DNA of 53,190 bases, counting the filler, from Sphacelaria rigidula (lineage: Eukaryota): the NCBI GenBank assembly GCA_964200075.2. It is 2 parts of 2 records of this genome, joined end to end, with 100 filler letters (N's around TTAATTAATTAA, not from the genome) between each part and the next. Parts side by side here need not be neighbours in the genome. Positions count along the whole stretch, not along the records: positions 26,659 to 53,190 come from CAXNAA020000134.1; 1 more part is not named here. One strand, given 5' to 3'. Below, one piece after another: positions 5,501-53,190 of the stretch. Each line of letters begins with the position of its first letter. The stretch's first letter is position 1. The position numbers were made by a program, and so were the translations under genes. A model generated the notes under the pieces. The model did not search any database. It worked only from the letters and a program-made list of their open reading frames with translations, and was not told where the DNA came from.

Positions 5501-5787
5501 TCTGTGACATATTTTCTCAGAGGGCTACGGCAGGCCGCGCAACCCCTCGCCCGAGAAAGGCAAAAAAAGGGGCGACGGCGGCGGCAGTGTCAGCGAGGCA
5601 GGGGAGTGCATGCCAAAAAGGGAGCGTCGCCCCGAACGCCTCACCCGGCACCGAGGGTCCTGCTTCAACGGTGAACCGGAGGAGGCGAGTTCGCCCCGCG
5701 CTTGCAAGGTGGCGTCGTAAGAACGCGGAGATGCTGGCGGCTGTTCGGGCATCGTGCGAGCAGACCGGACCAGATTTGCTGCCGTGA
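2582..5787 (+). CDS. Spliced gene (5'-incomplete) for an unknown protein with a Cys/His zinc-finger-like motif; exons 2582-2701, 3652-3831, 4863-4954, 5521-5787
   Basis: All introns are GT-AG, with phases 1,1,0 that join into one open frame: ..DSPVLASCAPLVVNCVVNGCTASGVKGRCRRCKKCWAKP/GCAVGCFRCCLKAGRACETHAKQQERKRIEDALLAGGRSQNQLDGERRLAKGVFKEEAIH/AIGDTATVFCFMDFSRSKSNQGTFKALDRTQ/RATAG...PDLLP*. The start exon was not identified. Confidence 0.7.
3211..3346 (+). repeat. 68-bp tandem duplication (2 copies) in an intron
   Basis: 3211-3278 and 3279-3346 are nearly identical (tccc.gcat.gtgcggtgg.tctt.agcctggcatgaccgca.tacactgggaccccgcactctctgg). Confidence 0.9.
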
Positions 5788-14845: not shown

Positions 14846-15176
14846 TAATCCTGCCGCATGGACTCGTGAGAGTCCAATTTTCTTGGTGAGACACGGCCTC
14901 GGAATTGAAAGTCTCACCCACCCAGGGAGTGATGCCCTCGTGCTATCCAGAGCGTGCACATCCCACTGTCTCAGTGTCCTTGTATCAAATGACATCCTTC
15001 ACAGTACATGTACATGTGAACCAGCAACGAAAGGAGCATTTCCACAACACTGTTCGCTGCTCGATAAACGGAACTGTCGATTTCAATTGACAAACCAAGA
15101 ACGTTTGCTTGTGCCTCACACCTCATTCGTGCGCAGGTATACCGTTTCAAGTGGAAAGAGAGAGCAGGAATCGACG

Positions 15177-26558: not shown

Positions 26559-26658
26559 NNNNNNNNNNNNNNNNNNNNNNNNNNNNNNNNNNNNNNNNNN
26601 NNTTAATTAATTAANNNNNNNNNNNNNNNNNNNNNNNNNNNNNNNNNNNNNNNNNNNN
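26559..26658. other. Artificial 100-bp assembly spacer (44 N + TTAATTAATTAA + 44 N)
   Basis: Exactly symmetric. The 12-mer places stop codons in all six frames, which is a standard design for scaffold/pseudomolecule linkers. Confidence 0.9.
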
Positions 26659-28632: not shown

Positions 28633-29278
28633 GTCTGGGCATATCTTTTCTCGTTGATTTAACGCCATGTCAAGTAATCCCTCTACCGTAGTACGAAGTG
28701 GGGTCCATACTGAAGTCTACATGACACCCCGAACGATATATACAGCGGATGATGACTTTTGGAGTGAACATTCCCTCGAGCTCGGTGTAATGCGTGAGAG
28801 GACCGCATGCTTAGAGGACCGCATCGGAATTTGAACATCCCGATGGTTAGGGTTAGGGTTATTAGAAGGTTTCGGAAAACAAATTTTTGAGCCAAAAACT
28901 CGGTGATAATTTGCGTCTTCTCACTAAAATCCAATCAAACGATAATTATCCCTGAGTTTTTCCGGCCTGTTTTTGTTTTCCGAAACTCTTCATTATGGTT
29001 AACATATTAGGGCTTCACACTCTGATGTGGTCCAAAAAGCACGTGATTCCCCCCCGCATTACATAGACCTTCGAGCTGATGGGCGCATCTTCCCCTTGGT
29101 TAGTATTGATGAGAGACGTGTGTGAGAGCTGACCCAGATCATATACCCTACGTGTCCCGCCGTCTCTAGAACATGAAGTGACCTGCTCACCATCGCAGGC
29201 CATTTAATCTTCTACAAGCGTTGAGCGTGCGTTGGAAATGTTGACCACTCATGTTTCGTTTCTTGATTTGCCGTGCAG

Positions 29279-29350
29279 GACCTATCTCCGGAGCGCTTGG
29301 AGATCTCGATGAGCTGAGGGTGCTGAAGCTGAACAGTAACGAGCTCACGG
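29279..29350 (+). CDS. LRR exon A (72 nt, phase 1-1): (G)PISGALGDLDELRVLKLNSNELT
   Basis: tgcag|GA...ACGG|gtaag; fits the plant-type 24-aa LRR consensus. Confidence 0.9.
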
Positions 29351-29499
29351 GTAAGAAATGATCTAATGGACAGATTTGTATTATTGAAGCTGTGCCATGC
29401 GTAGCCGAGAAGGCCAGTGTATGATGTAGAGCCGGAGGCAAGACACGATCGATCTTACGGAAATCGACAGAAGCATTGTGTTGACTTTCCTGTCTACAG

Positions 29500-29571
29500 G
29501 ACACATACCATCGCAACTTGGGAATCTCGGCGCCTTGGAGCACCTCGACCTCAGCGATAACAAGTTGAATG
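29500..29571 (+). CDS. LRR exon B (72 nt): (G)HIPSQLGNLGALEHLDLSDNKLN
   Basis: tacag|GA...AATG|gtgag; 24-aa LRR. Confidence 0.92.
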
Positions 29572-29935
29572 GTGAGTTCATAAGTTCGTACAGCGAATTC
29601 TATTTTTCCTACCGCAAATGTCTTGAAAACGGCATGTGTTCCGCGCGCGGATGTCGTTCAACACGTTGTTCGTCTCACCTGAGGATCTCATCCCTGCGTG
29701 TATTCGGTTGCAGCAGGCCTCATCCCCTCTCGAGTTAAGTGGTGAGCCTTCCCAATCGTAGATTTGAAAGCACAAGCTTTCGGTTTTCATAGAGATATGT
29801 CCTACGTGGTCCGCCTGCGCCGCTAGAATATGAAGCGAAACCCTCAATGTCGCAGGCCATTTCATCTCGTTAAAGTACTCAGCTTTTGTCGAACGTATTG
29901 CTTGTTCGCGGCTTATTTCTTGCTTTGCTGTGCAG

Positions 29936-30007
29936 GTCACATTCCCGAGGCACTCGGAGGTCTCGGGAAGCTGAAGGTACTGAAGCTGAACGGAAACGAG
30001 CTTACCG
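29936..30007 (+). CDS. LRR exon C (72 nt): (G)HIPEALGGLGKLKVLKLNGNELT
   Basis: tgcag|GT...ACCG|gtgag; 24-aa LRR. Confidence 0.92.
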
Positions 30008-30214
30008 GTGAGAGATGGTGAAAAGGATAGGTTTCTTTTCTGGAACGTGTGTCCCAACCATGCGTGAGCGAGTGGAGTGGGCCAGCACATGGTGTAGAGG
30101 CGTAGGCAGCACAACCGATTTCTCGAAATTCCGACAGCACTATCTATGCGTTGACTGCCATGTCCAATAATGTTCGTTGTCAAGGGGTAAAACCGAGTAG
30201 GAGCCACGAACAGA

Positions 30215-33723: not shown

Positions 33724-35238
33724 GATGGTCCGACTGTCTCCATGAGGGTTGAGAGAACGTGGCTTCGATTCTTACCAGATACGCTGGGTTCTTTTCTTGG
33801 AAGTTTATGTGATTTCCACCGTCGGAAGCGGGTGTATGTGAGTAGACATGAAGTAGTTGACTAGAGTTGTTATATCGGCGGAAAAGGCCGTAGTGCGGAA
33901 GTGCTGACCCAATCCGCAAATCAAAGTGCTAGACGTCTACAAGGGAGGGATGGGTTGATTTTTTGGGACGATGGACTGTTTCCGAGAAAGAGGACGAGTT
34001 CGAAGTGCGACAAAAATGAAAATCTGCGACAGGGTTTGTATAGCATGCATTCGGGACCTCCACGAGCACTCCACTTGAGCACCGTACCGTACGTAGAGTT
34101 TGAATTGGCTTGTCAAATAATTGAGCTGTACGCCTGAGACTTCGGATTACAGGAAAACGCAAGCAGCACAGAGGGCGGTATGGTCATACTTACTTGATGA
34201 GCAACAGAGGACCACGGCGGAACATGAGGTGCAGTCCTCCTTCTCTCAATTAGCCTCTGAAGTTATTGCACTGGTTGTGACTGCACTGACGATACTGCCT
34301 GTCTTGAACTATATTACAATTCACTGAGTACGGTACATTGGTTAAGTATTCCTGCTGTAGAAGTCCATTCCCATGTGGTTTCGACAGCGATTGCCCGAGA
34401 CACGACCCCACCCTGGTACCTGCTCCGTGGCTACTACTAAAAGAGCTCCTGATGTTTGTCTCACCGCACAGTCTGGGTGGTGCGGGAAACCAATTCTCTT
34501 ATGAAAGGGTGCGACTATTCCTCACCAGCCGCATGATAATCCTTCCCTGGCTGAATGCATACTCCCGGGTGCGAGAGGAGTACTTCTTTTGAACCGACAT
34601 TTAATGCCGTAACGCAGCATGCAGGTGGCGGGATTTCATGTCCGCCGTCAAGGTCTATTCATCCAGATACGCGAAACCTTTGACGGCGGTTTCCTCTGTT
34701 GGCCGTGGGTCTATCGCAACTGTACGACAAAACGACGGGGTAAAATTATTACACCTTATCCCCACCTTGGGCCGCATGTAGGACGGGGGCCTGGATGCAA
34801 TCTCGGGTTAGTGCATGCTACTTAGCCTGCGGAATTCGCGATGAAGCGCTCCACTCAATCTAACTAGATTAGCCGAAAATTATCCACAGACCAATGCTTG
34901 AACAGTTTACTGGCGATCACGGACTATGTTCTGTAAGCTTTGCCATACACGTGATCCTCTTCCGTAATCGTGTCACGCTCATTTGGCATATCCTTCACGT
35001 CTCGAGATCTACCGGTGGTGACCATCCCCTCGTCGTTCAAACTTGGTGCATGATGTTCGCCTGACGAGGGTTGGGCCTGTCGCTGCCTGAACCTTCGTCA
35101 CCTGCAAGAGCTAAACCAGTTTGGGTCTCGTTGATTTCTTGTGAAATTGTGTCCCGTCCACGTGTAGGCGGGACACAGTTGTAGAACGGTAGGAGACATG
35201 ATGTGATTGTATACACGCTCGTTTCCAATACCATGCAG

Positions 35239-35310
35239 GCGAGATCCCATCGTCGCTCGGACAGCTTGGGAGCCTAGAAGTGCTTGACCTCGGCTTTAAC
35301 CAGCTCAACG
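35239..35310 (+). CDS. LRR cassette exon 1: GEIPSSLGQLGSLEVLDLGFNQLN
   Basis: 72 nt, atgcag|GC...G|gtgagt, phase 1-1. Confidence 0.9.
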
Positions 35311-35500
35311 GTGAGTCTGCGAAACGAATCACGGTGTGTAGGAGCAGGGGCGATATTCGAACAGCCGAGAATGGCGCCAGTTCGGATCCCGTTTGTGCTT
35401 TATGGAACTGTGTCCCGTCCACGAGTCGGCGAGACACCGTTGTAAAAACGACGGGAGAGATGATGTGATTGTATCCACGCTCGCTTCCAACACCATGCAG

Positions 35501-35572
35501 GCGAGATCCCATCGTCGCTCGGACAGCTTGAGAAGTTGCAAGAGCTTTCCCTTGGCGTAAACCATCTTGGCG
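35501..35572 (+). CDS. LRR cassette exon 2: GEIPSSLGQLEKLQELSLGVNHLG
   Basis: 72 nt, canonical splice sites. Confidence 0.9.
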
Positions 35573-35762
35573 GTGAGTCTGCGAAACGAATCATGGTGTG
35601 GGGGAGCAGGGGTGATATTCGAACAGCCGAGAATGGCGCCAGTGCGAATCCCGTTGTTGTCTTGTGGGAATGTGTCTCGTTCACGTGTCGGCGGGACACA
35701 GCTGTAGAAACGGTGGGAGACATGATGTGGTTGTATACACGCTCGTTTCCAACACCATGCAG

Positions 35763-35834
35763 GCGAGATTCCATCGTCGCTCGGGCAGCTTGGGAGCCTG
35801 GAAGCGTTTTCCTTCGGCGTAAACCAGCTCAACG
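35763..35834 (+). CDS. LRR cassette exon 3: GEIPSSLGQLGSLEAFSFGVNQLN
   Basis: 72 nt, canonical splice sites. Confidence 0.9.
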
Positions 35835-36026
35835 GTGAGTTTGCGGAGCGAATCATGGTGTGTGGGGAACCAGGGGCGATATTCGAACAGCCGAGAATGG
35901 CGCCAATTCGGATCCCGTTGGTGCTTTATGGAACTGTGTCCCGTCCACGTGTCGGCGGGACGCAGTTGTAGAAACGGTAGGAGACATGATGTGATTGTAT
36001 CCACGCTCGCTTCCAACACCATGCAG

Positions 36027-36098
36027 GCGAGATCCCGTCGTCGCTCGGACAGCTTGGGAAGTTGCAAGAGCTTGACCTCCGCGGAAACCAGCTCCACG
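36027..36098 (+). CDS. LRR cassette exon 4: GEIPSSLGQLGKLQELDLRGNQLH
   Basis: 72 nt, canonical splice sites. Confidence 0.9.
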
Positions 36099-36290
36099 GT
36101 GAGTCTGCGAAACGAATCATGGTGTGTGGGGAACCAGGGGCGATATTCGAACTACCGAGAATTGCGCTAGTCCGCGTCCCATTGGTGTCTTGCGGAACTG
36201 TGTCCCATCCACGTGTCGGCGGGACACATCTGTAGAAACGGTGGGAGACATGATGTGATTGTATACACGCTTGTTTCCAACACCATGCAG

Positions 36291-36362
36291 GCGAGATCCC
36301 GTCGTCGCTCGGACAGCTTGGGAGCCTAGAAGTGCTTGACCTCCGCACAAACCAGCTCCACG
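36291..36362 (+). CDS. LRR cassette exon 5: GEIPSSLGQLGSLEVLDLRTNQLH
   Basis: 72 nt, canonical splice sites. Confidence 0.9.
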
Positions 36363-36554
36363 GTGAGTCTGTTAAGCGAATCATGGTGTGTGGACAACCA
36401 GGGGCGACGTTTAAACTGTCGAGAATGGCGCCAATTCGGGTCACGTTGATCTCGTGTGGAACTGTGTCCCGTCCACGTGTAGGCGGGACACGGTTGTAGA
36501 AACGGTGGGAGACATGGTGTGATTGTATCCACGCTCGTTGCCAACACCATGCAG

Positions 36555-36626
36555 GCGAGATCCCATCGTCGCTCGGACAGCTTGGGAGCCTGACAGCGCT
36601 TTACCTCACCGGGAACCAGCTCCAAG
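36555..36626 (+). CDS. LRR cassette exon 6: GEIPSSLGQLGSLTALYLTGNQLQ
   Basis: 72 nt, canonical splice sites. Confidence 0.9.
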
Positions 36627-36817
36627 GTGAGTTCGCAAAGCGAATCACGGTGTGGGGGAAACAGGGACGATATTCGAAGTGCCGAGAATGGCGCCAATTC
36701 GGATCCCGTTTGTGGCTTGTGGAACTGTGTCCCGTTCACGTGTAGGCGGGACACAGTTGTAGAAACGGTGGGAGACATGATGTGATTGTATCCATGCTCG
36801 CTCCCAACACCATGCAG

Positions 36818-36889
36818 GCGAGATCCCATCGTCGCTCGGACAGCTTGGGAGCCTGCAAAAGCTTGACCTCCGCGGAAACCAGCTCCACG
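36818..36889 (+). CDS. LRR cassette exon 7: GEIPSSLGQLGSLQKLDLRGNQLH
   Basis: 72 nt, canonical splice sites. Confidence 0.9.
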
Positions 36890-37078
36890 GTGAGTCTGTG
36901 AAGCGAATCATGGTGTGTGGAGAACCAGGGGCAATTTTCAAACTACCGAGAATGGCGCCGGTTCGGGCCCCGTTGTTGTCTTGCGGAGTTGTGTCCCGTC
37001 CACGTGTAGGCGCACGGTTTTAGAAACGGTGGGAGACATGATGTGTTTGTATCCACGCTCGTTTCCAACATCATGCAG

Positions 37079-37150
37079 GCAACATCCCATCGTCGCTCGG
37101 GCAGCTTGGGAGCCTGAAAGCGCTTTACCTCAGCGGAAACCAGCTCTACG
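37079..37150 (+). CDS. LRR cassette exon 8: GNIPSSLGQLGSLKALYLSGNQLY
   Basis: 72 nt, canonical splice sites. Confidence 0.9.
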
Positions 37151-37333
37151 GTGAGTTTGCGCAACGAATCATGGTGTGTAGGGAAACAGGGGCGATATTC
37201 GAAGTGCCAAGAATGACGCCAATTCGGATCCCGTTGTTGTTCTGTGGAACTCCACGAGTCGGCGGGACACAGCTGTAGAAACGGTGGGAGACATGATGTG
37301 ATTGTATCCACGCTCGTTTCCAACACCATGCAG

Positions 37334-37405
37334 GCGAGATCCCATCGTCGCTCGGACAGCTTCAGAACCTGTACAGGCTCGACCTTCACACAAACCAGCT
37401 CAACG
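37334..37405 (+). CDS. LRR cassette exon 9: GEIPSSLGQLQNLYRLDLHTNQLN
   Basis: 72 nt, canonical splice sites. Confidence 0.9.
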
Positions 37406-37657
37406 GTGAGTCTGTGGAGCGAATCACGGTGTGTGGGGGCACGGGCGATATTCGAAGTGCCGAGAATGGCGCCGGTTCGAGTTCCGTTGGTGTCTTGCGG
37501 AACTGTGTATCGTCCACGTGTCGGCGGGACACAGCTGTAGAAACGGTGAGAGACACGATGTGAATGTATCCACGCTCGTGTCCAAGAGCATGCAGGCGAG
37601 ATCCCATCGTCGCTCGGATAGTCTAGGAACCTGCAGAGGCTTGACCTCAGCGGAAAC

Positions 37658-38877
37658 TGAAGGCCTCTCGAAGGAGGTGCTCTGGACAGAGGGGAATGCG
37701 TAATAACTCTTCCTTATAAACCTCTTACATCCTTTACTCACTCAGCACCAACCGTGCGAGCTCCACGCGAGCTTCGCCCACATCACCGAAATATGTAGAA
37801 TGCAGGTACAAAACATGAAGTGCCGTTGTTGGGGCGCACAGAACACCTCGTCTCCTATGCGCCACATCTGATGATAACATAATACCTGTCCGCCCCGTAC
37901 CTTTGATATACCGTCAACCTTCCGCGTAATGCACCCGAACTAATTCGAGTGCATGTGCACTAGGGTTCAGGTCGGCAATGTTCTAAATTCTCATAGCTCC
38001 CCTGGTCATATCATCACGCAGGAAAATCTTATTTATATCCCATTAAAGTCAAACAATTATCACAACACAAATGCCGTGAGGCTTGAAAGGTGTGGGCAAT
38101 AGTCAAGCGACAAAGGCAAGCAACAAATAAGTACGCCCCCCTAATCCTATATATCCCTTTCTCATTTTCGGCAGTTCAAGAACCCATCGAAACTCGTGCC
38201 GTGTTTCCTCCATAATCCAATCACAAGAGGATACCTCATAATTCAAGTCCAATACATCAAATAAATATAAAAACTCGCCATTTGCCATGATCTATCAAAA
38301 AGATGATGTTCTCAAATCCACCGACCCCTGACCTCTTTTGTGACCACAGAACCTGTTTGGAAACACTTGAGTTTCATGTCGAAAATCAAACTCAGATGAA
38401 AAAACTACTTCAAACTATGTTGGGATCTCGGTGACTAGAAATCGAGACTGAATCACAACAATCACACTCGAATCGAACTACGGCAACATACACGGTACAG
38501 TACAAAGTGTCATAACGCGATCACCACGTGAGATTCAGTTCATGAGCCTGAATTTTCACGCGGTTTTGATGCGCGCCAGCTGTTTTTACGCAAAATAATC
38601 CCCAACAAATCTCAAAAAGCCTAATGAAGTATGCCAATTACTGTTGCAAATCTGATCCCATTAGTCAAATCACTGCAGTCGGACAGTAAAACTATTAATG
38701 CGCTTTCATTCAAGATCGAATAATTCAAAGCCTTATCCAAAATCAAAATTGCGCAATAATGCATGAATCTACTATCAAACTGATGTGGTCGACAAGTAAA
38801 CACTTGAAATGGCCACATTCGGAGTATACTATACACCAAAACCTATCTCCGGCCTCTGCATTCTTCCATGGTCACGC

Positions 38878-38912
<35 letters not shown>

Positions 38913-41720
38913 CCCCCCCCCCCGCGACGCGGCCCGCGGAGGGGGGGGGGGGGGGGGCGGGGGGGGGNNNNNNNNNNGGAGTAATCAACCCACCAAAACC
39001 CCCCCCCCCCCCCTCCTTTCTTCCCTCGTCCCCCCCCCCCCCCCCCCCCCCCCCGGGTTCATCGGATCGGCACTGCACCCTTGCTCCACTCCATCGGCAT
39101 CGCTCCCCTGCTCCATCCCACCGCCACCGCTCCCCTGCTCCACTCCACCGCCACCGCTCCCCTGCTCCACTCCACCGCCACCGCCCCCCTCCTCCATTTC
39201 ACTGGCACCGACGACGCCACGCGTGAACATGTGTTGCCGACTGTGTTGGTGGTAGCGGCAGTGGTGTTGGCATCAGTTGCATCGGACTCGGAGTCGTTGC
39301 CGATGGCTGCGGTGGTGTCGTGAGAAATGATAGTAGCGTCGGCGCAGTAGTAGCGGGAAAAAATAGGTGTTGTGGTGCGGCGGCGGGTGGAAATGACGGT
39401 ACCGGATGCGCAGCGGTAGTAGAAATATGTCGTCGTGTCGCGGCGGTGAATATAGATGGTGGTGACGGCGGTGCAGCAGTAGCGGGAAAATATAGGTGTT
39501 GTGGCGCGGCGGCGGGCGAAAATGAAGATTGCGGCGGCGCAGACGTTGGAAGCGGCTTGGATTCTATTGCGTGAATCAGCGGCTGCGGGGATGCCGGCGG
39601 GTAGGCGACGGTACTAGTTTCACAACCCCCCCTTCCGACTCCCACGTCGCCCGACCGATGCGTCACTGTCGGAAACATTATCAACTGCGACATAAAAAAA
39701 ACGATTTTTCAGCGATCCTACCCTGCTCTTCAATAGTTCCAACTCAGCATGTGCTGTGTTCACTGTACCGTGAAGGATTTCTGTCTCTATTTCGGACATC
39801 GCAAAAAGCATACCACGCTGGATCTCATAATCCGAGGACGATCTGCGCATAGCGCCTGTTGGCATCGAACTTTGAAATTACCGTACCATACTGTATCTCT
39901 TATGTCTTATCACGTTTGCCTTGCTCAGAAAAAAATGAAGGTGATTCCCCTGACGCCATTCTCAAACTTGTCCACGCCTGTTCGAGGCGAGCTTTCTCAG
40001 CAGTGGAGGAAACAAAATAGTGCCACCCTTCGCTGGGTGAGCCAGATTGCCACATGCTCCACAATGTGGGGTGCGTTATTTTTCCAAGATAATCGTCATG
40101 AACTCGTTGAGCCTTTTCTACTGCCTCGTATTCGTGCTGCCTTTCGAACTCCTCTTCCGTCTCATGAAACACGCGAATAGGTGCCAGTACAAAAAGGGCA
40201 TCACGGCATTTCTCGATGCGGAAGTATCCACACATGTAATAGGAAGCCCCATGCGCCGGGTGCATTGTCGGGGAAGTTGTAGGCCAGTCATGACCAGTTG
40301 AGACCAGGTGTCACTTATGAAATTAATTCACACATATTTTCCCACTCACACACATACACACAGAAAAACACACGCACCGCACGCACTGAACGAAGTGAGG
40401 TAGTCAATCTTAGGGAAATCGCTCAGAAAAACGACACGTCATAATCTCATCTCTTCGCCACGCAAGAAAACATGTGCCCCCCTCAGATACCTACTGCAAC
40501 CATGACATCGGGTATACCTCAAATAAGAGAACTAAGCTCTCATTCGTATTTCCCCTGTACGTCATGATCCAATCTCAATATCCATTACCCTTGCATCCAA
40601 GCCGATGCACAGTTGTAATCCGTGAGCGTAAGTATATTCGATTAACATGTGCACGTGGAACACCCGAAACTTCGAGTTGAGACTCTCCCCTGTTGTCAAC
40701 GATTCGTCCCATGGGTGAATACTGTTGTTGCTGCGTACCCGTACAACGTTCGTGCGGCTCTTTGCCCCTGCATGTAATGATCTTACCTAGTTTCGGGAAA
40801 AACTCGTGGGTTGCTTTGACGATCTCGGTTGTTGACTGTACTAGTCTGCACAGGGTTGCTCTGCGCGCCCGTATCAAAATGTATGGTTCTCTCTCTCTCT
40901 CATACTCTGCAATCGCCTCACCATTTAGCAGCTTCTATGAGTTCCGCCTGCTTCACTTCCATGAGCCGCAACTTCTCTGTTGATATTTTTCTGTGCTTGC
41001 TTCCTTTGTGGTAGCCATTGCTTAACTGTAACTCCGCTCAAACGTATACTCAATCCCTTGTGAAATCAGGTCTATTTCCCTTGTGAGTATACAGCCGAAA
41101 ACATTCTTCGACCTTATGGTATTTGTTTTGCACATCTATCTTGTGATGTGCTTTACTGCACTAGAACGCTGAACGCGCGAGTTCTGCTGCTGTTCTGCTC
41201 AGCTGTATCAGATGCTAACTGCGTAACTTTCAAACTTCTGCTTCAAATTCTTCTCTCGTGCTCGATAGCACTAAAGATAAAACGCTCTGCGCGTGAACCT
41301 CTCTCAAGCTTAAATGCTCCCCTCTGCTTATTGACTGGAATCAGTTTTGCTTCAATCTGACCGGTGGAGCTCTTCGTATCGCTCGCGTAATGAAGGCCTC
41401 TCGAAGGAGGTGCTCTGGACAGAGGGGAATGTTTAATAACTCTTCTGCATTAACCTCTTATACCCTTTGCTCACCCAGAACCAACCGTGCAAGCTCCACG
41501 TGAGCTGCGCCCACACCACCAAAACATGTAGAGTGCAGGTACAAAACATCAAGTGCCGCTGTCGGGGCGCACAGAACACTTCGTCTCCTACGCGACACAT
41601 CTGATGATAACACAATACCTGTCCGCCCCGTACCTTTGATACATCGTCAACCTTCCACGCAATGTACCCGAACTAATTCGAGTACATGTGCACTAGGGTT
41701 CAGGTCGGCAATATTCTAAT
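37658..41720 (-). mobile_element. Non-autonomous/degenerate LTR retrotransposon (copia-like gag remnant, no recognisable pol); LTRs 37658-37993 and 41391-41720
   Basis: Direct repeats of ~330 bp, about 90% identical by manual count. The left LTR is TG...CA with a minus-strand PPT aggggagcta (37994-38003). agcggaaac is duplicated on both flanks (37649-37657, 41721-41729). Frameshifted gag-like peptides on the minus strand include GSPSEGWHYF..AEKARLEQAWTSLRMASGESP (~39930-40050) and SDYEIQRGML..AHAELE, plus a Gly-rich linker and a decayed zinc knuckle CIVYSECGHFKC (~38795-38835). Confidence 0.8.
39075..39195 (+). repeat. 27-bp tandem repeat (~4 copies; GGGGVEQGS on the minus strand) inside the LTR element
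   Basis: Repeating unit ccctgctccactccaccgccaccgctc. Confidence 0.85.
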
Positions 41721-44302
41721 AGCGGAAACCAGCTCAGCGGTGAGTCTGAGAAACGAATCATGTGTGGGGAAGAAGGGGCGATACTCGAACTCCCAAGAAT
41801 GGCGACAATTCGGGTGCCATTGGTGGCTTGTGGGACTGTCCCGTCCACGTGTAGGCGGGACACAGTTATGGGTAGGAATGGGGGCGATTTGGGGTACTAT
41901 ATTCCTGGAAAGTGCAAGGTGAACGCTATATTTCGTCAGAAGAGGTCCGTAATCCAACGAACCGTATCAACGGAAAATGCACGCGTCACCTGAAAATAAC
42001 GATCTGACTCATATGAAATGATCTTTTTTTCTAGTACATTTATTCAAGCCTGGGACTGGTCGGTGTTGAGGTGATTTTGTTCCTCCGGATAGCTCGCTCT
42101 AGATCACTAGGTGTTGGTGCACTAGCTAGTGTCCTGCTTCTGTCTGTACCACTCGGGAAGCACACGCCCTCGGGCTGCCACCACACATTCACCGTCATTG
42201 TGAAAATAACAAGACAAGAACACGAACAGCAGCAGTTGTGGCCGCCACACACCAACGTATCTGCAGCGAAAGGCATGCCTGACCTAGTGCTAGAACAAGA
42301 AAGTACCGAAACTTGGAGACCATGAGCAGCAGCGTTGTGCATGTGAAAACTACTGAGAACGATGTTGATTATTTTGGTCATGGCATGAGTGGAAGGAATC
42401 CCATCTTGTCAGTCGCTTAGGCACGATCTGGTACACTCTGTCCAGATCAACATCTTCAACGTCATTTTTTTTCTGTTTTCAAAATCTCGTACGGGACGAA
42501 GTTGGACAAACGTGACAAAAAACAATTGTGAGGACGACAGAGACGGGATGGATGGTGATAAGGGAGGGGGCAACGCTCCTCAAAAAAGTGAATTGATTAA
42601 TTACCGACTGCGCTCCTTCCCGCCCGTGTAGTGTCCCGTTTCAACAACAAGTTGGCTAAAGTCGCATAGCTCACATGTTATTTGCAGTATGTACAGGCAG
42701 TCACGTGAAACATCGTTGCTCTGCCGACCCGGTCATGCATGGCTCGTGCGTCATCGAAAATAAAACCGCTCTAGACGCCTTGGGTCCTGCCTCGAAACCG
42801 TCTGTCACGGTTCATCAGATTGCTGCATCTCTCCGACATATGCAGCACAGGGCAAGGCGTCATCCACGCGGTATCCAGTACACCCTGAAATCAATCCAAA
42901 GTGGATGACACGATGTCTTCAGCATTATTTAGGCCGTTTCTTCCGGGCCGTTTTTCCTCCATTGGTTATAGTCTGATATGGCAATAACATAATTAGCGAG
43001 GTCGGCTAATCATGCATCGACTATGCTTTTGACAGCGTTTTTTACGAAACCTGCGGACATTTGACTGATGGAACAAAGTCAAACACTTCGTGTATATACT
43101 GAATATATGAAGATCGAAAACATCAATTCCGGTCAGCTGGCATGTTCGAAAACCCTACTCGCTCGATATCACACCATACGACGGTGAGATTCACCTACCA
43201 CGATTGTAAGCATGCGAACAGCAATCGAAACGACGGTTCCCGGTTGGAAGCACCATGTTACGGACAGTTGGTATCGGCGGCCTCTGGCTTGTCCGTGCAC
43301 TAGTTCGTTTTTACTATTGCCTCAATTGCGTAGGTTACCATGATCGCTGTACACACGCTGTGCACGCATCTTCAAGTGTCGGGGAATGAACATAGAACTT
43401 AGCTACGTCAAACAAACATGCGACATACTTATTTATGTATGGTTTGACTGTGTATACTGGCTCACCGTTATCGAACAGCAAAACGTAGAATGATGACCGC
43501 AAACGGTATTCAGCACAAGGGATGATCAGTTTAACGCAGAACAGCTCATCCTGCATGTCAGGGTGTCTTGAGCACAGCTTCAGGGCGATGGTTTTCTCTT
43601 GTGTAGTAGTCTTGACTGCCTCAATACATTCACATAAGCTCGTAGCTCGTTTTGCTCACGTAGAGAGTGAACCCAAGGGGGGCGCCGGTGTTTGGTAACC
43701 ACGGCGCGCAGGGAGGCGTGTCTGTAACCGTTACAAACGGATACCCTCCCTCTCCTTTAGTTAGAATACCCATAGGTCACATCAACTAGCCGTCTGAGCC
43801 CGCCAGTCGAATAGCTGGGTTCATCCTCGTACTACCCTTCCACCATTACGCCGCGTTCCAGAACATTAGTTGGTGCAAAAAAATAACATTGGTCGAAGAT
43901 TCAAGTTGGCGCAAATCGCACGGTTTACATATTGTTTGCAGTATGTACGGGCAGTCACTTAGAACATTGTGGCTCTGCCGACCCGAGCATACATAGTGCG
44001 TAGTCTAAAGTATAAATCGCTCTTCGCGCCTTGGCTTCTCCCCTGGAACCCTCAGACACAGCAGACGGAGCTAACGTGTGACCTCACCCTCTGCAACTCA
44101 ATACATGAAGGGTACTCGCTGTTCAAAGGCGAATCTGCTCTATGTGCACAGTCGTACAGAACGAAGGAGCACCTGATGGCACGCCACAAAGTGAAATGCC
44201 GACATACACTGCTCGCCATAAGGAGAAAAACATGCAGCCCAAAACAAAGCTTGTTGAACGTCGCATAGTTTGCATCTCATTTTTATATTATTCATCCTTT
44301 TG

Positions 44303-44404
44303 GAGCCCATTGACGATTTTTGTTTTTGTGAATCGGCATCATTTTCAGTCATTTTCAAGTCAAAATCATGCCGATTCACAAAAAAGAAAAGCGTCAATGG
44401 GTTC
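44303..44404. mobile_element. ~100-120-bp hairpin MITE (second copy at 47249-47374)
   Basis: gagcccattgacg..tttgtgaatcggcat ... atgccgattcacaaa..cgtcaatgggttc. Confidence 0.75.
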
Positions 44405-44467
44405 GGTCGATAGCATATGCAGACAGTTACTAAATACATGACCACAGTCGCCAGCAGATGTAAGAAG

Positions 44468-44905
44468 ACGGGATCTTACGAACTGGGGATGGATTTTTTA
44501 CTAGGAATGAGAAACCCGGAGAAATAAAATCTTCGTATCCACACCAAATCTTCAAAATATGGTTTCATTCTTTCACCTACTGATAGCTTTTGACAACTAC
44601 TACGCGTCGAAAAAAATATAACCTCGATAACACAAATGTTGGGGTCTTCGGTGGGAAACGAATTTTGGGGAATTCTGGGTGTCCGAACGGACGCCAAAAT
44701 GGTTCCGAAATTGGTGTTTCACCTAGGACCGCAACATTTCGGAGATCGAAATCCAAATTTCTGTGGCATGTATCAGTTATCAATAGCTATTAGTAGGTGA
44801 AGAAAAAGAACCACATTTCGAAGATTTGGTGTGGATACGAATATTTTTATTCTCCGGGTCTCTCATCCCCCCAAAAAGATCCATCCCCAATTTGTAATAT
44901 CCCGT
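44468..44905. mobile_element. MITE with ~120-bp TIRs nested in the 3.8-kb element
   Basis: acgggatcttacgaactggggatggat...tcgtatccacaccaaatcttc...ttcacctact and agtaggtgaa...gaagatttggtgtggatacga...atccatccccaatttgtaatatcccgt. Confidence 0.8.
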
Positions 44906-45770
44906 GTTTAAGGCAGTGCACTCACTAAAATCGCTCTCGACGCCTTGGCTTCTGCACTTGAGTCCTGACACAAAGCAGTCGCCAGCTTTGTCTTTCTTCT
45001 GTGAACTCTCCCTCTATAATTCGACACGTGAAAGGATACTCGCTGTTCAAAGGCGAAACCGCCCTTTGTGCAGAGCCGCACAGAACAAAGCATCGCCCGG
45101 TGGCACGCAACCAAACTGCATGTCGTCACAACTACCTGCTTTCGGCAAGAAACAAACTAGCGCACCGATTTTTGGAATTTTCCATCTTCGACCTCGAAAG
45201 ACGCTACTGACCCTCAACCCAAACGTGCCGATCGCGCAACGCTTCGATCTCGGCAACAGAGCGGGGGATGGGACAGCAGTTGCTTGCGTGCGCTTCCCAC
45301 ACACCCAAGCTAGGTCTCCGAGTAAACTTTCTGCGTTCGCGCGTGATACTGAGTCGCAAAAAAACAAAAAAACTAGCATAAGATGTTATTGGCTTTGAGG
45401 GGGGGGTTCTGGTCCGCTGTTGCGACTTGACCTAAATGTGTAACCAAATTCTCTTGCTGTTGTGTGTATGCGGGGGGCTGTGGAGTGCCGTAGGCTGGCT
45501 TGCTTCCTGTGTCGAGAACCGCGCGATCTTCAATGCTGCAGCTTTCCAATACTTAACCAAGTTAATAAGTGATTATGCATGTGTTCTGTTCGTGATGGTC
45601 TCGGCACAGGTCCGACCATCTACCGACGTGTTCATTATTCCTCCGCGTTATTTTTGACTATAAATTTGGTGTAGATATTTGGTCGTAAGGGCCCCATTCC
45701 TACCCCTAAGTGGTAAGATGCTGGGAGACATGATGTGATACGATCTACGCTCGTTTCCAACACCATGCAG

Positions 45771-45842
45771 GCGAAATCCCATCATCGCTCGGACAGCTTG
45801 GGAACCTGCTTTGGCTTTACCTCCGCACAAACCGGCTCAGCG
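45771..45842 (+). CDS. LRR cassette exon 11: GEIPSSLGQLGNLLWLYLRTNRLS
   Basis: 72 nt, canonical splice sites, open frame. Confidence 0.88.
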
Positions 45843-46032
45843 GTGAGTCTGCGAAACGAATCATGGTGTGTGGGGGCACGGGCGATATTCAAACTGCCGA
45901 CCATGGCGCCAGTTCGGGTCTCGTTGGTGTCTTGTGGAACTGTGTCCCGTCCACGTGTAGGCGGGGCACAGTTGTAGAAACGGTGGATGACACGATGTGA
46001 TTGTAACCACGCTCGTTTCCAACTCCATGCAG

Positions 46033-46104
46033 GCGAAATCCCGTCGTCGCTTGGACAGCTTGAGTGCCTGGAAGTGCTAGACCTCCGCGCAAACCAGCTC
46101 AGCG
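46033..46104 (+). CDS. LRR cassette exon 12: GEIPSSLGQLECLEVLDLRANQLS
   Basis: 72 nt, canonical splice sites, open frame. Confidence 0.88.
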
Positions 46105-47374: not shown

Positions 47375-48373
47375 GATCAAGGGCCCAACGGGAGATGTCC
47401 CAGACGTCGACCCACCCCTCCGACCTCCTTGCCGATTGTGGGTTTTTCCTGTCCGTATCGTGTTACACGAGTTGGTTGACCCCTTTAGGGTCTGCCCTAG
47501 ACGCATATCAGTGCTCTGTGCTATGGACTTCTTGCGGGGCAAGGGGATACAACAGACTGGCCTGGACTATTGTTCTATCGAGGTACTTGTGCACGGGTTT
47601 CGCGACCCTGTCTGGGTCTCTGCTGAGCGCGCATGAGTACTCGGTCTTATCCCTACACCACTGTGGTTCGGGAAGTAACAAGGAAAAATCAGCTTTTCTT
47701 TTCAGTCTGGGCACTGTTCCACGCGTCGATTGACCCACTCCGGGTCTGTGCTAGGCGTGAACTGATGCTCGGTTCTATCATGAAAGCGGCTATTGTCGGG
47801 GGGTGACGAAATACTGTCACTGCTTCTTGTTTTGTCCGGGTGTTGGCAGACCCGTTGTTTGAACCCACTGTGGGTCTGCATTAGGCGTGAACCACACTCC
47901 GGTCGTTTTTCGATGCTTTAGAAGATTCTCAAGGACCACCCTTAAAGACGCGATGCATACTCAATTTGTGAAATCCCGTGTTCCTTGTAAAACTGTCTCG
48001 GTCGACTGTTTCCCCGGCTCTGACTACTTTAATTTGCTCTGTGGCGCCAGCAGGTCGCTAGTATGCAGCGTCTAATGCTGTTGAGGGACTCCCCAGTTCC
48101 ACTGGCCTCAGGTTTCAGTTGTTAGCCTTCACAACACCTTTTATTATCCTGAAGTGCCACACAGGCACATGCTCCAGAAAACACATCAGGGTATCACCCC
48201 CGTGTCCATGTCATCATCCATATCAGCACTACATATCCCAAGTCATCATCCAATCATCACTATATACTCAACGTGACGGCTCGATTTCGTCTCAGCACCC
48301 CCAAAGCGCTTTGGACGAGAATCGAGCAACAAGCTTGACACTCGGAAAAATAACGCCAAAACGATTGAACAAG

Positions 48374-50990
48374 TCACAACTGAATAGAAAACTCACGCAT
48401 AATGCGAGCAGCAATGGAAGGAGTCACTCGCACCTTACGCAACTCTTTTTTGAGAAATTCCGGAGCGGCCTCGAAAATATTTTTAAAAGGCTCCCACGTA
48501 CGCTCCTCGGCTTCAAACCCAACCCAGTCGACCAAGACGATCAACAAACGATCCTCTGCCTTTGCCACGCGAACAATCCCAGCCACCTGAAAAAATTGCC
48601 CCTGGTTGAAGGCGTGCTGAAACACATCCTTCACGTCTGCCGTTACATAAAGCTGTGAGTCTGCATAAAACCGCAGACGAGCGACATGGGCGGTCTGAAT
48701 ACGACCAAAAACAATGTTTTCGATCTCAAACACATGCGGGTGATGAGCACCGACCACTCTTCACCGATCAGTCCACGTCGCCATCAATTTAGGATTAACT
48801 CCCGGGCGACGCACGCGTGCATACAAAACATAATCGCTTACCTCGAAATTCGGCAATCCCAGCCCCGACGAAGACCCCTCACGTCTACGCGCACGTTCAG
48901 CGGCAACACGCTCCTGCGCTCGAGCGCGGAAACTTTCCTGCAACGCCAACACTCCTTGCAACTCACGCTTCAGTTGCGCATCGTCTAAGACATCACAGTT
49001 CCACTCCCGCGCCGATGAGGACGCCAAAACCGAGAAAGACGTCCGAGGTGTACGACCAAACATCACATGTTACGGCGTACTATCGTATCGACGGCGATGT
49101 GCTGTATTTAACGCCCATCGCACCGCGGGCAACACGTCCACCCACTCTGTCACCACTCGACGCTGCTCGAGAAGAATAGATCGAAGAGCACGAAGTACTC
49201 CCTTGACCATGCGTTCGCACGTGCCTTTAGACCACGGAGAATAGGCCGCCACAAACCGGTGATCAACGTGTAATGCCTTTCGCAAGCGGGTCAAGATCGT
49301 GTTCTTGACATGCGTGGCGGTATCACTCACCCACACACTCGGCACCCTCAAAGTTTTGCATCAATTCAGCAAAGATGCAGCAATCGATTCAGCAGTACAC
49401 ACTGCTACTGGTTCCAGAGCCACGAAGTTGCTCGAATCATCCATGATTACCAAAATGTATTGAAACCCAGCATCCTCCGACAAACCTTGGGAAGCTAGGG
49501 GGCCACTCTCGCCCATGTACTACATAAAGTCAAAATGAACGACTTTATTCGGCATGGTCCCATGGACCGTTTCGCTGAGCGGGCGGGGAACAACATCGCC
49601 CGCCCTCGAGTCAGCACAGTGAACACACTGGCGGACAAATTCGCGCACATGAGTTTCTATCCCCAGCCAGACACGAACGTCTTGCAAGCACACGAGCGTC
49701 GCAGCCACACCACGATACGCGGCGTCGCGTATGTGCACGCAAATCATCAGACGTACCTGCGACTGCTTGTCAGAACTCGAAATCCACAAGACGTTCCCGC
49801 CACGCACATGCACACGAAACAGACCTTCATTGTCCAAGATAGCAGTACCAACGTCCGACTCGAAAGATCGTACATCCGTATCTCCGGCCCCAAGATCTTT
49901 CCGTTGCGCTTGGCGGACGGACAACAGATTTGGACGGCATCGAGTCATGAGGTTCACACGGATCATATACAGTCACAGCGCGCACAGGCATTTGAATTTC
50001 AAATGTCGGCACCTGCATAACCAAACTACCCCAATGGCACTCAAATGCATCCGGAGACATTGACACCTGACAATCAGGACAAGGGTGGAACAGCGTCACG
50101 GCATGAGCCACCAAATCCTTGGCTGACGCCCACGCCTGCAGCCTACCCTCCGTCCACGATGCAGCCTTCTTCGGAAACGCCATATCTAGACTGGACCACC
50201 CCGGCTGCAAATTCCGTAACGCCAACCCGAGCGCCAAAAGAGCCACCATGCACAACGCCAACCAACTCGGCTTCACTGGATCGTACCGCCGCGGCGACGC
50301 CCCAGGTTTTGGCTGAACACGCATGGGCTCCGCGCGCGCAGGAGAATCACCTCGCAGCGCACGACGAAACGCGTTGACGCGCCAATGCAATATGCCGCGC
50401 AGGCGCTCCGCTTTTGAGGAGCTGAGGCCGGTCGCCCCAGCATCCGTCACGCTCTCCTCCAGCGCGATCATTCGCGCGGCCTCCTCTTCCGCCGGCTCCA
50501 TAAACATATCAAGGCAACGCTTCACTAAGCGTTCCACCGCCTTATTACGCTCCTCGGACACCTGCCCCCCCGGCAAGCTCACTCTGCGACTGGCCAAAGA
50601 CGCAGGCGTCTCGACACTTGAACCGGGCGACGGCATTTGCGTTTTTAGCGACTCTAACAGCCAATCATACGGGTCGACTCCGAGTTTCCGAAACGTCGGT
50701 AAGCCCAACAGAACGAAACCATCCGTCCCCGGCATGATCGCAAACGATATCGGGGGTAATTTCGCTGTCCCCCAGGTCGTCCTAAACGCCAACTGTAGGG
50801 GAATCCCACGCTCCGTGACATTGACACGTTGCCCCCATGCGGTGATGGCCTGCCGCGCCCCGTGCAAGGACGAATGCGGATCTTCTCACCAAGGAGTAGA
50901 CGCTCCAGCATCTCCACAATCAGCACCGACACGCTCGTGAAATGGGCGCCTGGATCCAGCACAGCGTTGACCGATATGGCTCCCCGCGCC
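48374..50990 (-). pseudogene. pol: Frameshifted pol: protease (LDPGA), RT/RNase H remnants with RT core missing, integrase and chromodomain
   Basis: Integrase motifs H..(Y)RG...VREFVRQCVHC, VVHFDFM, WVSDTATH.KN, AYSPWSKGTCERM, W.DVLPAVRWALNT. Chromodomain VLVDWVGFEAEERTWEP. Multiple stops and frameshifts. Confidence 0.9.
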
Positions 50991-51390
50991 CCTTGATTTT
51001 AGGAGATAGAACTCTGCAGGAATATATTTTTCTTGATCCCCGACCGGCACCTGCTCCGCCGACTGATTTGTCGTGATCCCCACTTGGCGCCACGGCTGCG
51101 CTTGCGGCGCAGGCATAGACGCCCCCGCTGGGGTAAACGGCACCGCCGGCAGAATCAAATTGAAGCGGTACTCCGGCCGACGCAGCGGCGGATCCAAAGT
51201 TCAGCTGAAATCCGGCCGGCTCAGCAGCAGGCGTCTCGCCTTGCTCTGCTGCCGGCGGCGCCGGCACCGAGCCCGACTCTTGAGTGGTCGGTCCCACCTA
51301 CACCGCCCGTTGCGGAGCAGCAGTCCCTGCAGCTGAGCCGGACCCAGAACCGGACCCCTGCTGCTGCTGCTGCTGGGACCGGGAACTCGA

Positions 51391-52314
51391 CTACACACCT
51401 CCACCGCTGGAGGATCCGCCTCCGCCTCCACCCCGATTACCTTTTTCTCCTTCAAGACTGCCAGGGCGCGCGGCACTTGTCTGCCCAGACTCCCCCTCGG
51501 CAGGCGTTGGGCACTTGCGTGCGTAGTGGCCTACCTGGCCACACTGAAAGCAAGTGATATTGGCGGCGGCACTGGCTGCGGATTTGGATCCGCGGTTACG
51601 CGAGCTCGAAGACTGCGGCGACGAGGTGGATGGTTTCCCGAATACTTCAATCTTCCGCCATGCCTGAGCCCCAGCTATCACGGTGTCCATAACTAAGTAC
51701 AGGTCTGACTTCCAATTGGTTTCGTGCTGTAATTGCACAAGCACGGCCTGTTTGAATTCCACCGGTACCGGACCCTCCACCATCGCTTTCGTGATCACCG
51801 CAGCGGGCCCTGGACGGAGTTTTTCATCGGAGGAACGATGAACCATCTCGACGTTGGGATTTTCCGAAAAATCTGTCTCCAACTTTCCCATGATTGGCTC
51901 CACCCTCTCACGCATGGTCTTACCCTTGTGGTTCATAGCAACAGACTTCGCCACGGCCGCGAACGCCTGGGTTAGCTCTACCTCAGCGCCCGCCGCATGC
52001 CCTGCATGCTTCTTGATCGCTGCAGTCAATTTCAGCGGCGTTATTGTGTTCTTCTCATGGAATCTTCTCGCGAAAACGAGTTGGAGGGAGTCAGGCACGA
52101 GTTGCGCCATGGATACCAGCTGATGCCTTACCGCACCCCCCGCATTCGCATGCTCCATCCGCTTCTTGTACTCCACACATTTCGTATAAGACAAACGAGA
52201 AGCACACTCAGAATACAAATTCTCGTAAGTGGGAGGCCGCAACTCTTCTCTCAGAACAACTGGGGTTACGGTCGTCTCCGCTGGCTCTTCGGTCAGTACT
52301 TCTGTAGTCGACAT
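51391..52314 (-). CDS. gag: Gag of the gypsy element with CCHC zinc knuckle
   Basis: 307-aa ORF containing CFQCGQVGHYARKC (51511-51552). Confidence 0.8.
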   Translation of the reverse strand: MSTTEVLTEEPAETTVTPVVLREELRPPTYENLYSECASRLSYTKCVEYKKRMEHANAGGAVRHQLVSMAQLVPDSLQLVFARRFHEKNTITPLKLTAAIKKHAGHAAGAEVELTQAFAAVAKSVAMNHKGKTMRERVEPIMGKLETDFSENPNVEMVHRSSDEKLRPGPAAVITKAMVEGPVPVEFKQAVLVQLQHETNWKSDLYLVMDTVIAGAQAWRKIEVFGKPSTSSPQSSSSRNRGSKSAASAAANITCFQCGQVGHYARKCPTPAEGESGQTSAARPGSLEGEKGNRGGGGGGSSSGGGV

Positions 52315-53190
52315 TTCCGAGCGGACCTAATCAAAGGCTTCTAAACCTTCTCGGGCTCCACAATTCACACCTGCCTTCGTCGCCGCACCGGCACAGCCGT
52401 GGGGTCCTGTAAACACCCGCTGCACGCAGGTCCAGCAAGTCTCCAGTCTGGATCAATCACGGGCCAGTCGTCTTTGCAGCCACCTCAGCTTGAACCCTCC
52501 TCACGCGTCCATGAAGCAATATTTCCGAAGCTGTCCAGACCCCTCCCTACTGAAAAATTTCCAGCAGTCACTAACGATAGCACTACTAGTACGACTAGCA
52601 CTCATATCGATATTGTGACGCCAGCAGGTTGCTAGTACTGCAGCATCTAATGCTGTTGAGGGACTCCCCAGTTCCACTGGCCTCAGGTTTCAGTTGTTAG
52701 CCTTCACAACATCTTTTATTTTCCTGAAGTGCCACACAGGCACATGCTCCATAAACCACATCAGGGTATTACCCCCGTGTCCATGTCATCATCCAATCAT
52801 CACTATATACTCAACGTGACGGCTCGATTTCGTCACAGCTCTCTTTTGCAGCTGAGGAGTAAGAGGCGGAGACTATTTGTTTCCAAACCCTAGAGACCAC
52901 TTTTAGAACACTTGATCTACTCATCTGCGTTGTGCATGGGGTTTTAGATTAAGCTTTTGATTATCCATGATCCCCGAGCAAGCTGAGGTATCTCCATCTC
53001 GACGACAACCTTCTAACGGGTAAGGGAGGTGCCGTCTAGGCAACATGTAACAGTGGGTTCTTAAAACTAGGGTTGAAAAACAAAATGAGGTTCAACTCAA
53101 GAGCCGTGCTTTCCCTGACCTAAATTCATGACAAATGACTTTCATATGGACCACCCCATCCCTCCCGACCTCCCCAAAACAATTTCGAGG

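Follow-up and report, generated by a model that had tools for sequence, protein, structure and literature searches.

We identified a tandem array of twelve leucine-rich repeat (LRR) exons in a 53,190-nt stretch of DNA from the Sphacelaria rigidula assembly GCA_964200075.2 (two parts of the assembly joined by filler letters, hereafter 'the window'). The array quite probably represents the LRR-coding part of a brown-algal gene built of type I LRR exons and shaped by tandem two-unit amplification, diversifying selection and occasional, old exchange between units. A previous reading of the sequence alone (below, the sequence-only reading) had described hypervariability confined to exposed LRR positions and patchwork exons. 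It overlooked that units were duplicated two at a time, that exon 10 is broken and that this exon type, with its selected sites, was already in print.

The repeating unit measures about 263 nt (main block: period 264, 9.7 copies) and consists of a 72-nt LRR exon, set between CAG and GTGAGT, and an intron of 183-192 nt. CAG precedes all twelve exon starts listed below, and 11 of the 12 exons combine the 72-nt length with a GTGAGT directly 3'. Nucleotides 3-71 of each exon form 23 codons, the split codon encodes glycine, and one exon corresponds to one 24-residue LRR. Because the exons are symmetric, any of them could be skipped without a frameshift. The exon alignment follows the consensus GxxPxxLxxxxxLxxLxLxxNxLx, starting in the glycine codon. 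Pfam LRR matches were weak (E 0.002-0.09, below cut-off) for five of the six single exons scanned. Introns 1-9 and 11 can be aligned along their whole length and differ pairwise by 9-18%. The array comprises the following features:

35116-35238, plus strand: 3' part of an array-type intron ahead of exon 1, 5' part missing
35239-35310, plus strand: LRR exon 1 (72 nt; nt 3-71 = 23 codons)
35311-37595, plus strand: span with nine homologous GT-AG introns, 1-9 (183-192 nt)
35501-35572, plus strand: LRR exon 2
35763-35834, plus strand: LRR exon 3, with Phe at two framework Leu positions
36027-36098, plus strand: LRR exon 4
36291-36362, plus strand: LRR exon 5
36555-36626, plus strand: LRR exon 6
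36818-36889, plus strand: LRR exon 7
37079-37150, plus strand: LRR exon 8
37334-37405, plus strand: LRR exon 9
37596-37657, plus strand: inactivated exon 10, 5' part, with in-frame TAG
37658-41720, no strand assigned: insertion 1, 4,063 nt, splitting exon 10
41730-41869, plus strand: final 10 nt of exon 10 (41730-41739) and 5' part of intron 10
41870-45705, no strand assigned: insertion 2, about 3.8 kb, within intron 10, with perfect 14-nt terminal inverted repeats
45771-45842, plus strand: LRR exon 11
45843-46032, plus strand: intron 11, 190 nt, array type
46033-46104, plus strand: LRR exon 12; the array-type intron after it ends abruptly at about 62 nt

Diversifying selection on the beta-strand face of these repeats is well supported, and every test we ran favors it. 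Diversity counts cover the 11 intact exons (exon 10 left out) and the ten complete introns without their splice ends. The five x codons of the LxxLxLxxN motif have a nucleotide diversity of 0.417 (non-synonymous, pN, 0.516; synonymous, pS, 0.110), compared with 0.153 in introns, and drawing 15 intron columns 100,000 times never gave a value as high as that of the x codons. Each of the 11 intact exons has its own x-position signature, and the twelve signatures listed in the sequence-only reading are correct. That reading also rightly set radically varying x codons against near-invariant first codons, as pN is 0.018 in the first nine full codons. It erred in extending this invariance to synonymous sites: pS is 0.218 there, and four-fold third positions (0.188) do not differ from introns (0.155, p=0.68; sister pairs 8/45 vs 102/811, p=0.36). 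Since silent sites of the first codons vary like introns, no extra DNA-level conservation needs explaining.

Trees and codon models were based on ten exons of 23 codons, with exon 10 (broken) and exon 12 (which lacks a full intron) excluded. At first and second codon positions, a tree-free count of alleles minus one per column in the ten units gave 2.0 per site for x codons and 0.14 for the framework; the figure for 151 intron columns was 0.56. Minimum non-synonymous steps at x codons exceed synonymous steps per site over all exons (21/11.3 vs 15/17.5, p=0.016). In five independent sister pairs, x codons differ at 20/50 sites vs 102/811 in introns (p=3e-6), and first and second framework positions differ at 3/140. 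Local hypermutation was rejected as a cause, as third positions of x codons are not raised in the sister pairs (3/25).

Codon site models, implemented in our own code rather than PAML, were fitted with four topologies and two frequency models in six settings. The comparisons M2a/M1a, M8/M7 and M8/M8a were significant in all six tree-and-frequency settings (p from 3.5e-5 to 5e-10). M8 was preferred to M7 (p=3e-5 to 9e-9) with a selected class at omega 4.9-7.4 in every setting, and to M8a with p<=3e-6. Sites 14, 15, 20 and 24 reached posteriors of at least 0.98 in all six settings; site 17 reached 0.83-0.99, and site 19 reached 0.60-0.99 in five settings and less than 0.3 in one. Position 24, which follows NxL, is as variable and as strongly selected as the x positions, and positions 11-12 are moderately variable. 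The variation is thus not confined to LxxLxLxxN, as had been claimed. The proposal of diversifying selection itself stands (M8 vs M7 in our code, p<=3e-5, omega about 5-7), because x codons evolve faster than introns (0.417 vs 0.153) instead of merely keeping pace with them.

These rates also bear on whether the array is simply a decaying pseudogene or neutral tandem repeat, in which x positions are variable only through relaxed selection. The broken exon 10, the two insertions, the truncated ends, a chromodomain retroelement downstream and the lack of any other domain among those sought would all suit such an origin. Relaxed sites should nevertheless equal introns, whereas x sites lie about threefold above them and first and second framework positions lie far below (3/140 vs 102/811). 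Moreover, 11 of the 12 exons remain open and all twelve keep their AG and GT. The comparison of M8 with M8a largely refutes relaxed selection as the cause, and we give this explanation very little credence.

The selected sites can be placed on an LRR fold indirectly, through the AlphaFold model of a stand-in protein (P0060). P0060 repeats are up to 19/24 identical to array exons, and the model, mostly at a confidence score (pLDDT) above 90, has a helix at repeat positions 5-9 and a strand at positions 15-17. Profile matches in the PDB include the plant LRR receptors MIK2, TMM, GSO1 and HSL1 and lamprey variable lymphocyte receptors. Sites 15, 17, 19 and 20 of the type I exon were previously located on the concave face (PMC3341825). 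From the stand-in fold and this literature, sites 14, 15, 17, 19, 20 and 24 are predicted to lie in or beside the concave beta-strand. Site 24, just past the asparagine turn, would be exposed.

The array records its own duplication history: we consider it well supported that units were duplicated in blocks of two. In the whole-unit tree the partners are 1-3, 2-4, 5-7, 6-8 and 9-11, every pair two apart. Among 945 possible pairings, the all-lag-two pairing ranks first by total distance for introns, second for exons and first for whole units, and lag-two units are closer than expected by chance (p=0.014, 0.003 and 0.001 for introns, exons and units, respectively). Each lag-two pair appears in 80-91% of whole-unit bootstraps. 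Duplication by two units has been described as the commonest step size for LRR repeats, in a part of the study PMC1553488. This history changes how shared sequence blocks are read. The sequence-only reading held that blocks reassort between non-adjacent exons, and the shared blocks it named are present in the DNA. Two of its six cases require no reassortment: KLQEL in exons 2 and 4 and ALYL in exons 6 and 8 are explained by descent, because units 2-4 and 6-8 are partners by intron sequence.

Several observations suggest that descent is not the whole explanation, and on balance we think that some exchange occurred within exons. First, an incongruence length difference (ILD) test between 5' and 3' parts of the exons found conflict at three of four cut points (permutation p=0.004-0.034): cutting the exons after nt 44, 47 or 53 gave an ILD of 7 (p=0.034, 0.008 and 0.004, respectively); within introns, p ranged from 0.07 to 0.92. 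The half-exon conflict also exceeds what clonal simulation of codons on three trees yields at omega 5.5 (best of three cuts, p=0.011-0.043). Second, exons 1 and 5 have one difference in nt 1-47 although their introns differ by 18%, and exons 4 and 7 have none in nt 48-72 although their introns differ by 14%. Third, exon sites 2-9 nt apart show compatibility above chance (p=0.007). Finally, approximately unbiased (AU) tests narrowly rejected the intron tree with exon data (p=0.039) and the exon tree with intron data (p=0.047).

The same observations would be expected if frequent short-tract conversion within exons were the main generator of the patchwork, with half-exons swapped around the beta-strand codons and selection keeping the new combinations. 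We consider this unlikely, as no individual exchange stands out. In a GENECONV-like test the best of 45 pairs had p=0.0044 and seven fell under 0.05, and none passed correction. None of 720 unit triplets passed a Bonferroni threshold (best p=0.002, exon 1 between units 5 and 3), and none of 742 exon triplets passed multiple-test correction. The pairwise homoplasy index (PHI) reached significance in introns (p=0.0004-0.03) as well as in exons (p=0.003-0.006 for three window sizes out of four), but its signal comes only from sites less than 10 nt apart and is gone once adjacent sites are thinned (all p>=0.077). Homoplasy counts are not clearly above those of clonal simulations (p=0.07-0.35); one homoplasy ratio test gave p=0.024, a result lost with stronger rate variation. 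ILD tests on whole exons and introns indicate congruence (p=0.75 with the downstream intron, 0.66 with the upstream intron), and both exon and intron data accept the whole-unit tree in AU tests (p=0.24 and 0.39). Heavy conversion would also erase lag-two ancestry, yet the exons still show it. Mantel tests between unit segments gave no positive correlation at p<0.05 in 15 comparisons (eight units, low power). The earlier proposal of short-tract gene conversion inside exons therefore survives in part: exon halves conflict (p of about 0.01-0.04), but no single tract survives correction and exons agree with introns.

A stronger version of this idea is that misaligned units exchange DNA preferentially in the beta-strand codons (around exon nt 44-53), so that half-exons create new binding faces, possibly in a directed or even somatic manner with the array as a cassette library. 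This we regard as quite improbable. Whole-exon shuffling and splicing have been described for brown-algal LRR exons (PMC3341825; sections of PMC11378527), and the phrase 'gene conversion' is absent from the main texts of both papers. Our literature searches turned up no paper on exchange below the exon level in brown-algal LRR exons.

Programmed or somatic recombination of whole LRR cassettes was put forward by Zambounis et al. as an adaptive-immunity hypothesis (PMC3341825), and the array could be pictured as a donor library for it. Symmetric cassettes with near-identical flanks would suit such a process. Related exons also seem numerous: at 85% likeness, summed depth over the array, which is not a copy number, far exceeds that of single-copy flanks. 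The age of the variation argues against it. No recent copying is visible: every intron pair shows 9-18% difference, and identical stretches shared by two units reach 52 nt at most. Variants in a sequencing run from another study (X4) look inherited. This run differs from the window at 11/1,076 and 26/1,517 bases in single-copy flanks, and a 382-nt X4 contig covering exon 8 and parts of its flanking introns has four differences and three gaps. X4 contains 0.54 of the array's sampled words (best run 0.80); its flank divergence of 1.0-1.7% leaves 0.59-0.73 of 31-mers, so its word share matches inheritance. A further run (X2) is identical to the window in single-copy flanks and may stem from the source strain; two small-share runs (X5 and X6) were excluded from the evidence. 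No RNA run was among those listed for the array, which says nothing for or against its expression. These run comparisons rest on contigs, which cannot show unit order or rare somatic forms; contig mapping, for 4 of the 11 listed runs, was dominated by genomic repeats, with no contig spanning the array.

Inverted cassettes and recombination signals likewise found no support. A search with an exon hidden Markov model and with blastn of one unit found no minus-strand LRR exon copy. Most array introns share a 9-bp hairpin (intron alignment columns 101-130; 95% of cells pair); introns 7 and 8 have lost part of its stem. We rejected the hairpin as a splicing or recombination signal, as its nine pairs show no compensatory changes and perform no better than shuffles. 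Rfam gave no matches in 26600-53190. Part of the account by Teng et al. (PMC11378527) states that neither somatic recombinants nor a recombinase have been reported. With all of this in view, a somatic origin of the pattern seems to us highly improbable.

Two observations concern relatives of the array elsewhere. At window position 37083, 27 contigs of another run (X9, guessed to be RNA) place the 3' end of a different LRR exon directly before sequence resembling the start of exon 8. They look like spliced LRR-to-LRR junctions, and come from paralogues, because X9 has next to none of the array's words. In another assembly, a 51-residue open reading frame (P0271) contains a related exon together with a translated intron end that resembles the array's. 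The exon-plus-intron family therefore exists at another locus or in a relative.

We propose the following history for the locus. A unit of about 263 nt, exon plus intron, would have been amplified in tandem, largely in two-unit steps and most simply by unequal crossing-over; shared ancestry and lag-two pairing are observed, and the crossing-over is our inferred mechanism. Purifying selection then held the helix and the Leu/Asn framework while diversifying selection (omega about 5-7) replaced residues 14, 15, 17, 19, 20 and 24, by which each LRR turn would gain a different surface. Now and then in the more distant past, crossover or conversion between misaligned units probably exchanged halves of exons, with exons 1/5 and 4/7 as the best candidates on modest support. 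Decay of exon 10 and insertion of mobile elements would have come later. By analogy with its family, the array probably encodes the domain that recognizes the ligand in a candidate immune or non-self receptor, for example an LRR-ROCO, LRR-kinase or LRR-only protein.

Several points weigh against this interpretation. The codon models use fixed relative branch lengths and ten exons, and tests of this kind can be inflated by recombination. We noticed the lag-two pattern only after inspecting the tree, and when introns are bootstrapped by themselves it comes first in only 24% of replicates and falls within the top 5% in 96%. Regular-expression searches from beyond 26,600 to the window end turned up neither an N-terminal cap nor a Roc P-loop, NB-ARC or kinase motif. 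The Hsp70-type gene used for brown-algal placement is separated from the array by the gap at 26559-26658. A ligand or immune role has been demonstrated for no brown-algal gene of the type I LRR kind (PMC3341825). The array also carries a broken exon 10 and two large interrupting insertions, and it is truncated at both ends. It is possible, at somewhat less than even chances, that the locus is now a pseudogene, though this would not explain the pattern of variation. The gene need not be dead: since the exons are symmetric, skipping exon 10 preserves the frame.

The twelve exons counted in the sequence-only reading are all real exons of the 72-nt type, but exon 10 is not intact. It has been inactivated by an in-frame TAG and by the 4,063-nt insertion 1, which has a 9-nt target duplication (37649-37657 and 41721-41729). 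Insertion 1 has 329-nt terminal direct repeats (37658-37986 and 41391-41719, 90% identical) and a 10-N assembly gap (38968-38977), and the two internal open reading frames scanned had no Pfam match. Its repeats and 9-nt duplication presumably fit neither a typical long terminal repeat (LTR) element nor a terminal-inverted-repeat element. Insertion 2 appears DNA-transposon-like, judging from its terminal inverted repeats. Repeats are nested within it, among them a palindromic one of 444 nt (44465-44908). Further downstream, 48064-52795 (minus strand) holds a degraded LTR-retrotransposon-like element with 157-nt direct repeats (96%) and Pfam matches to zf-CCHC, an integrase zinc-binding domain and a chromodomain. 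Just past it, at about 52975-53021 (plus strand), lies the 3' part of a further LRR exon with an intact GT donor, its 5' part missing. Given this exon part, the LRR gene may continue beyond the window end.

Three older exons, 5-6 kb upstream, share the array's exon size and phase:

29279-29350, plus strand: older, diverged 72-nt LRR exon in the same phase
29500-29571, plus strand: older, diverged 72-nt LRR exon
29936-30007, plus strand: older, diverged 72-nt LRR exon

The exon at 29279-29350 probably belongs to the same gene as the array. The regions 29795-30164 and 29141-29494 are 67% identical. Among the older exons, a 25-nt AG...GT piece (29717-29741, plus strand) is a possible exon remnant. 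At about 35020-35115 (plus strand), a degenerate stretch that resembles an LRR exon runs into the first partial intron; this was judged by eye, and blastn gave no confirmation.

Other parts of the gene were sought on both sides. Motif scans found no convincing LRRNT-like cap (about 45 residues) on the plus strand after the 26559-26658 gap, and the cap may sit in or beyond that gap. From 26,600 to the window end they found no Roc P-loop or DFxG-type motif, and only 7 kb, mostly retroelement, remain 3' of exon 12; nor did they find a kinase catalytic-loop motif after 26,600. The gap itself consists of two N runs around a 12-nt A/T linker, and its two sides are perhaps not true neighbors. Ahead of it lie the 5' exons of an Hsp70/Hsp110-type gene (15174-25025, plus strand), cut off before the gap, with Pfam HSP70 matches in all three exons scanned. 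One Hsp70 exon matches nine proteins; the four named come from Ascophyllum, Pylaiella and two from Ectocarpus (83-87% identity). These exon matches indicate a probable brown-algal host for the array. One sequencing run that contains the array is labelled 'algae metagenome'. At about 2670-5740 (plus strand), short AG...GT stretches, read by eye, suggest exons of another spliced gene.

Searches for similar systems elsewhere returned little. A DNA pattern scan of JGI metagenomes found no loci, a protein-based scan confirmed none of 91 candidates, and a scan of viral contigs gave one weak LRR match (L001). Protein searches for spliced relatives mostly recovered long bacterial-looking or plant LRR proteins, and none of the 270 proteins collected combined at least three repeats of the 24-residue type with a Roc motif. 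Two LRR-Roc-COR proteins (P0100 and P0105) were set aside as relatives, as they have 23-residue repeats and look bacterial.

The finding itself is unsurprising to a specialist, and its value is as a test case. Earlier analyses were confined to exons; the homologous introns here add a neutral control, and with it diversifying selection is confirmed from a single locus. As for shuffling, the history reads as inheritance of units duplicated two at a time, with exchange inside exons occasional at most, and not as somatic rearrangement that is still going on. Tests of somatic recombination or alternative splicing would find a convenient target in an amplicon of 2.5 kb with eleven exons that can be told apart.

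More distant systems share parts of this organization. Tetrahymena arrays, as described in part of the paper on them, resemble it in their tandem exon-plus-intron units of one size and phase with mobile elements nearby, spread by ectopic recombination or unequal crossing-over. Unlike the array, they belong to a ciliate, use 90-nt exons and involve thousands of genes, and 'positive selection' does not occur in the main text of that paper. Fungal NWD/NLR repeats (Podospora; sections of PMC13449251) likewise combine near-identical repeats with a few hypervariable, diversifying positions, and unequal crossing-over and conversion have been proposed for them. Unlike the array, they use WD40 and other repeat types, with no one-LRR-per-exon design described in those sections.

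The closest known system is brown-algal. The array has the defining features of the brown-algal type I LRR exon array, and both the design and the selected sites are already published. In Ectocarpus, Zambounis et al. (2012) defined the 72-nt type I LRR exon from ROCO, kinase and further LRR genes (PMC3341825). They detected positive selection at sites 15, 17, 19 and 20, reported inactivated exons as well as local duplications, and put forward somatic recombination. The array agrees with their exons in its 72-nt exon per 24-residue repeat, its consensus and its concave selected sites, and with their loci in an inactivated exon among intact ones, local duplications within one locus and a probable brown-algal host. 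Teng et al. (2024) described ROCO LRR exons of the same phase and with the same sites in four brown algae. In the relevant sections of their paper (PMC11378527), the exons are 72 bp with nt 3-71 encoding 23 residues, as here, and their sites 14, 16, 18 and 19 correspond to array sites 15, 17, 19 and 20. Those sections favor alternative splicing, a feature of their ROCO genes. A preprint on brown-algal genomes reports, in part of its text, expanded ROCO families. Inactivated or inverted LRR exons occur in introns of many, though not all, type I loci (PMC3341825); the array has one inactivated exon (10), on the coding strand. Unlike in the Ectocarpus loci, no opposite-strand exon was found here by hidden Markov model or blastn, and motif scans after 26,600 found no Roc-COR or kinase motif. 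Also unlike the Ectocarpus account, sites 14 and 24 are selected here, and the array introns are alignable along their full length, which provides a neutral yardstick and a readable two-unit history.

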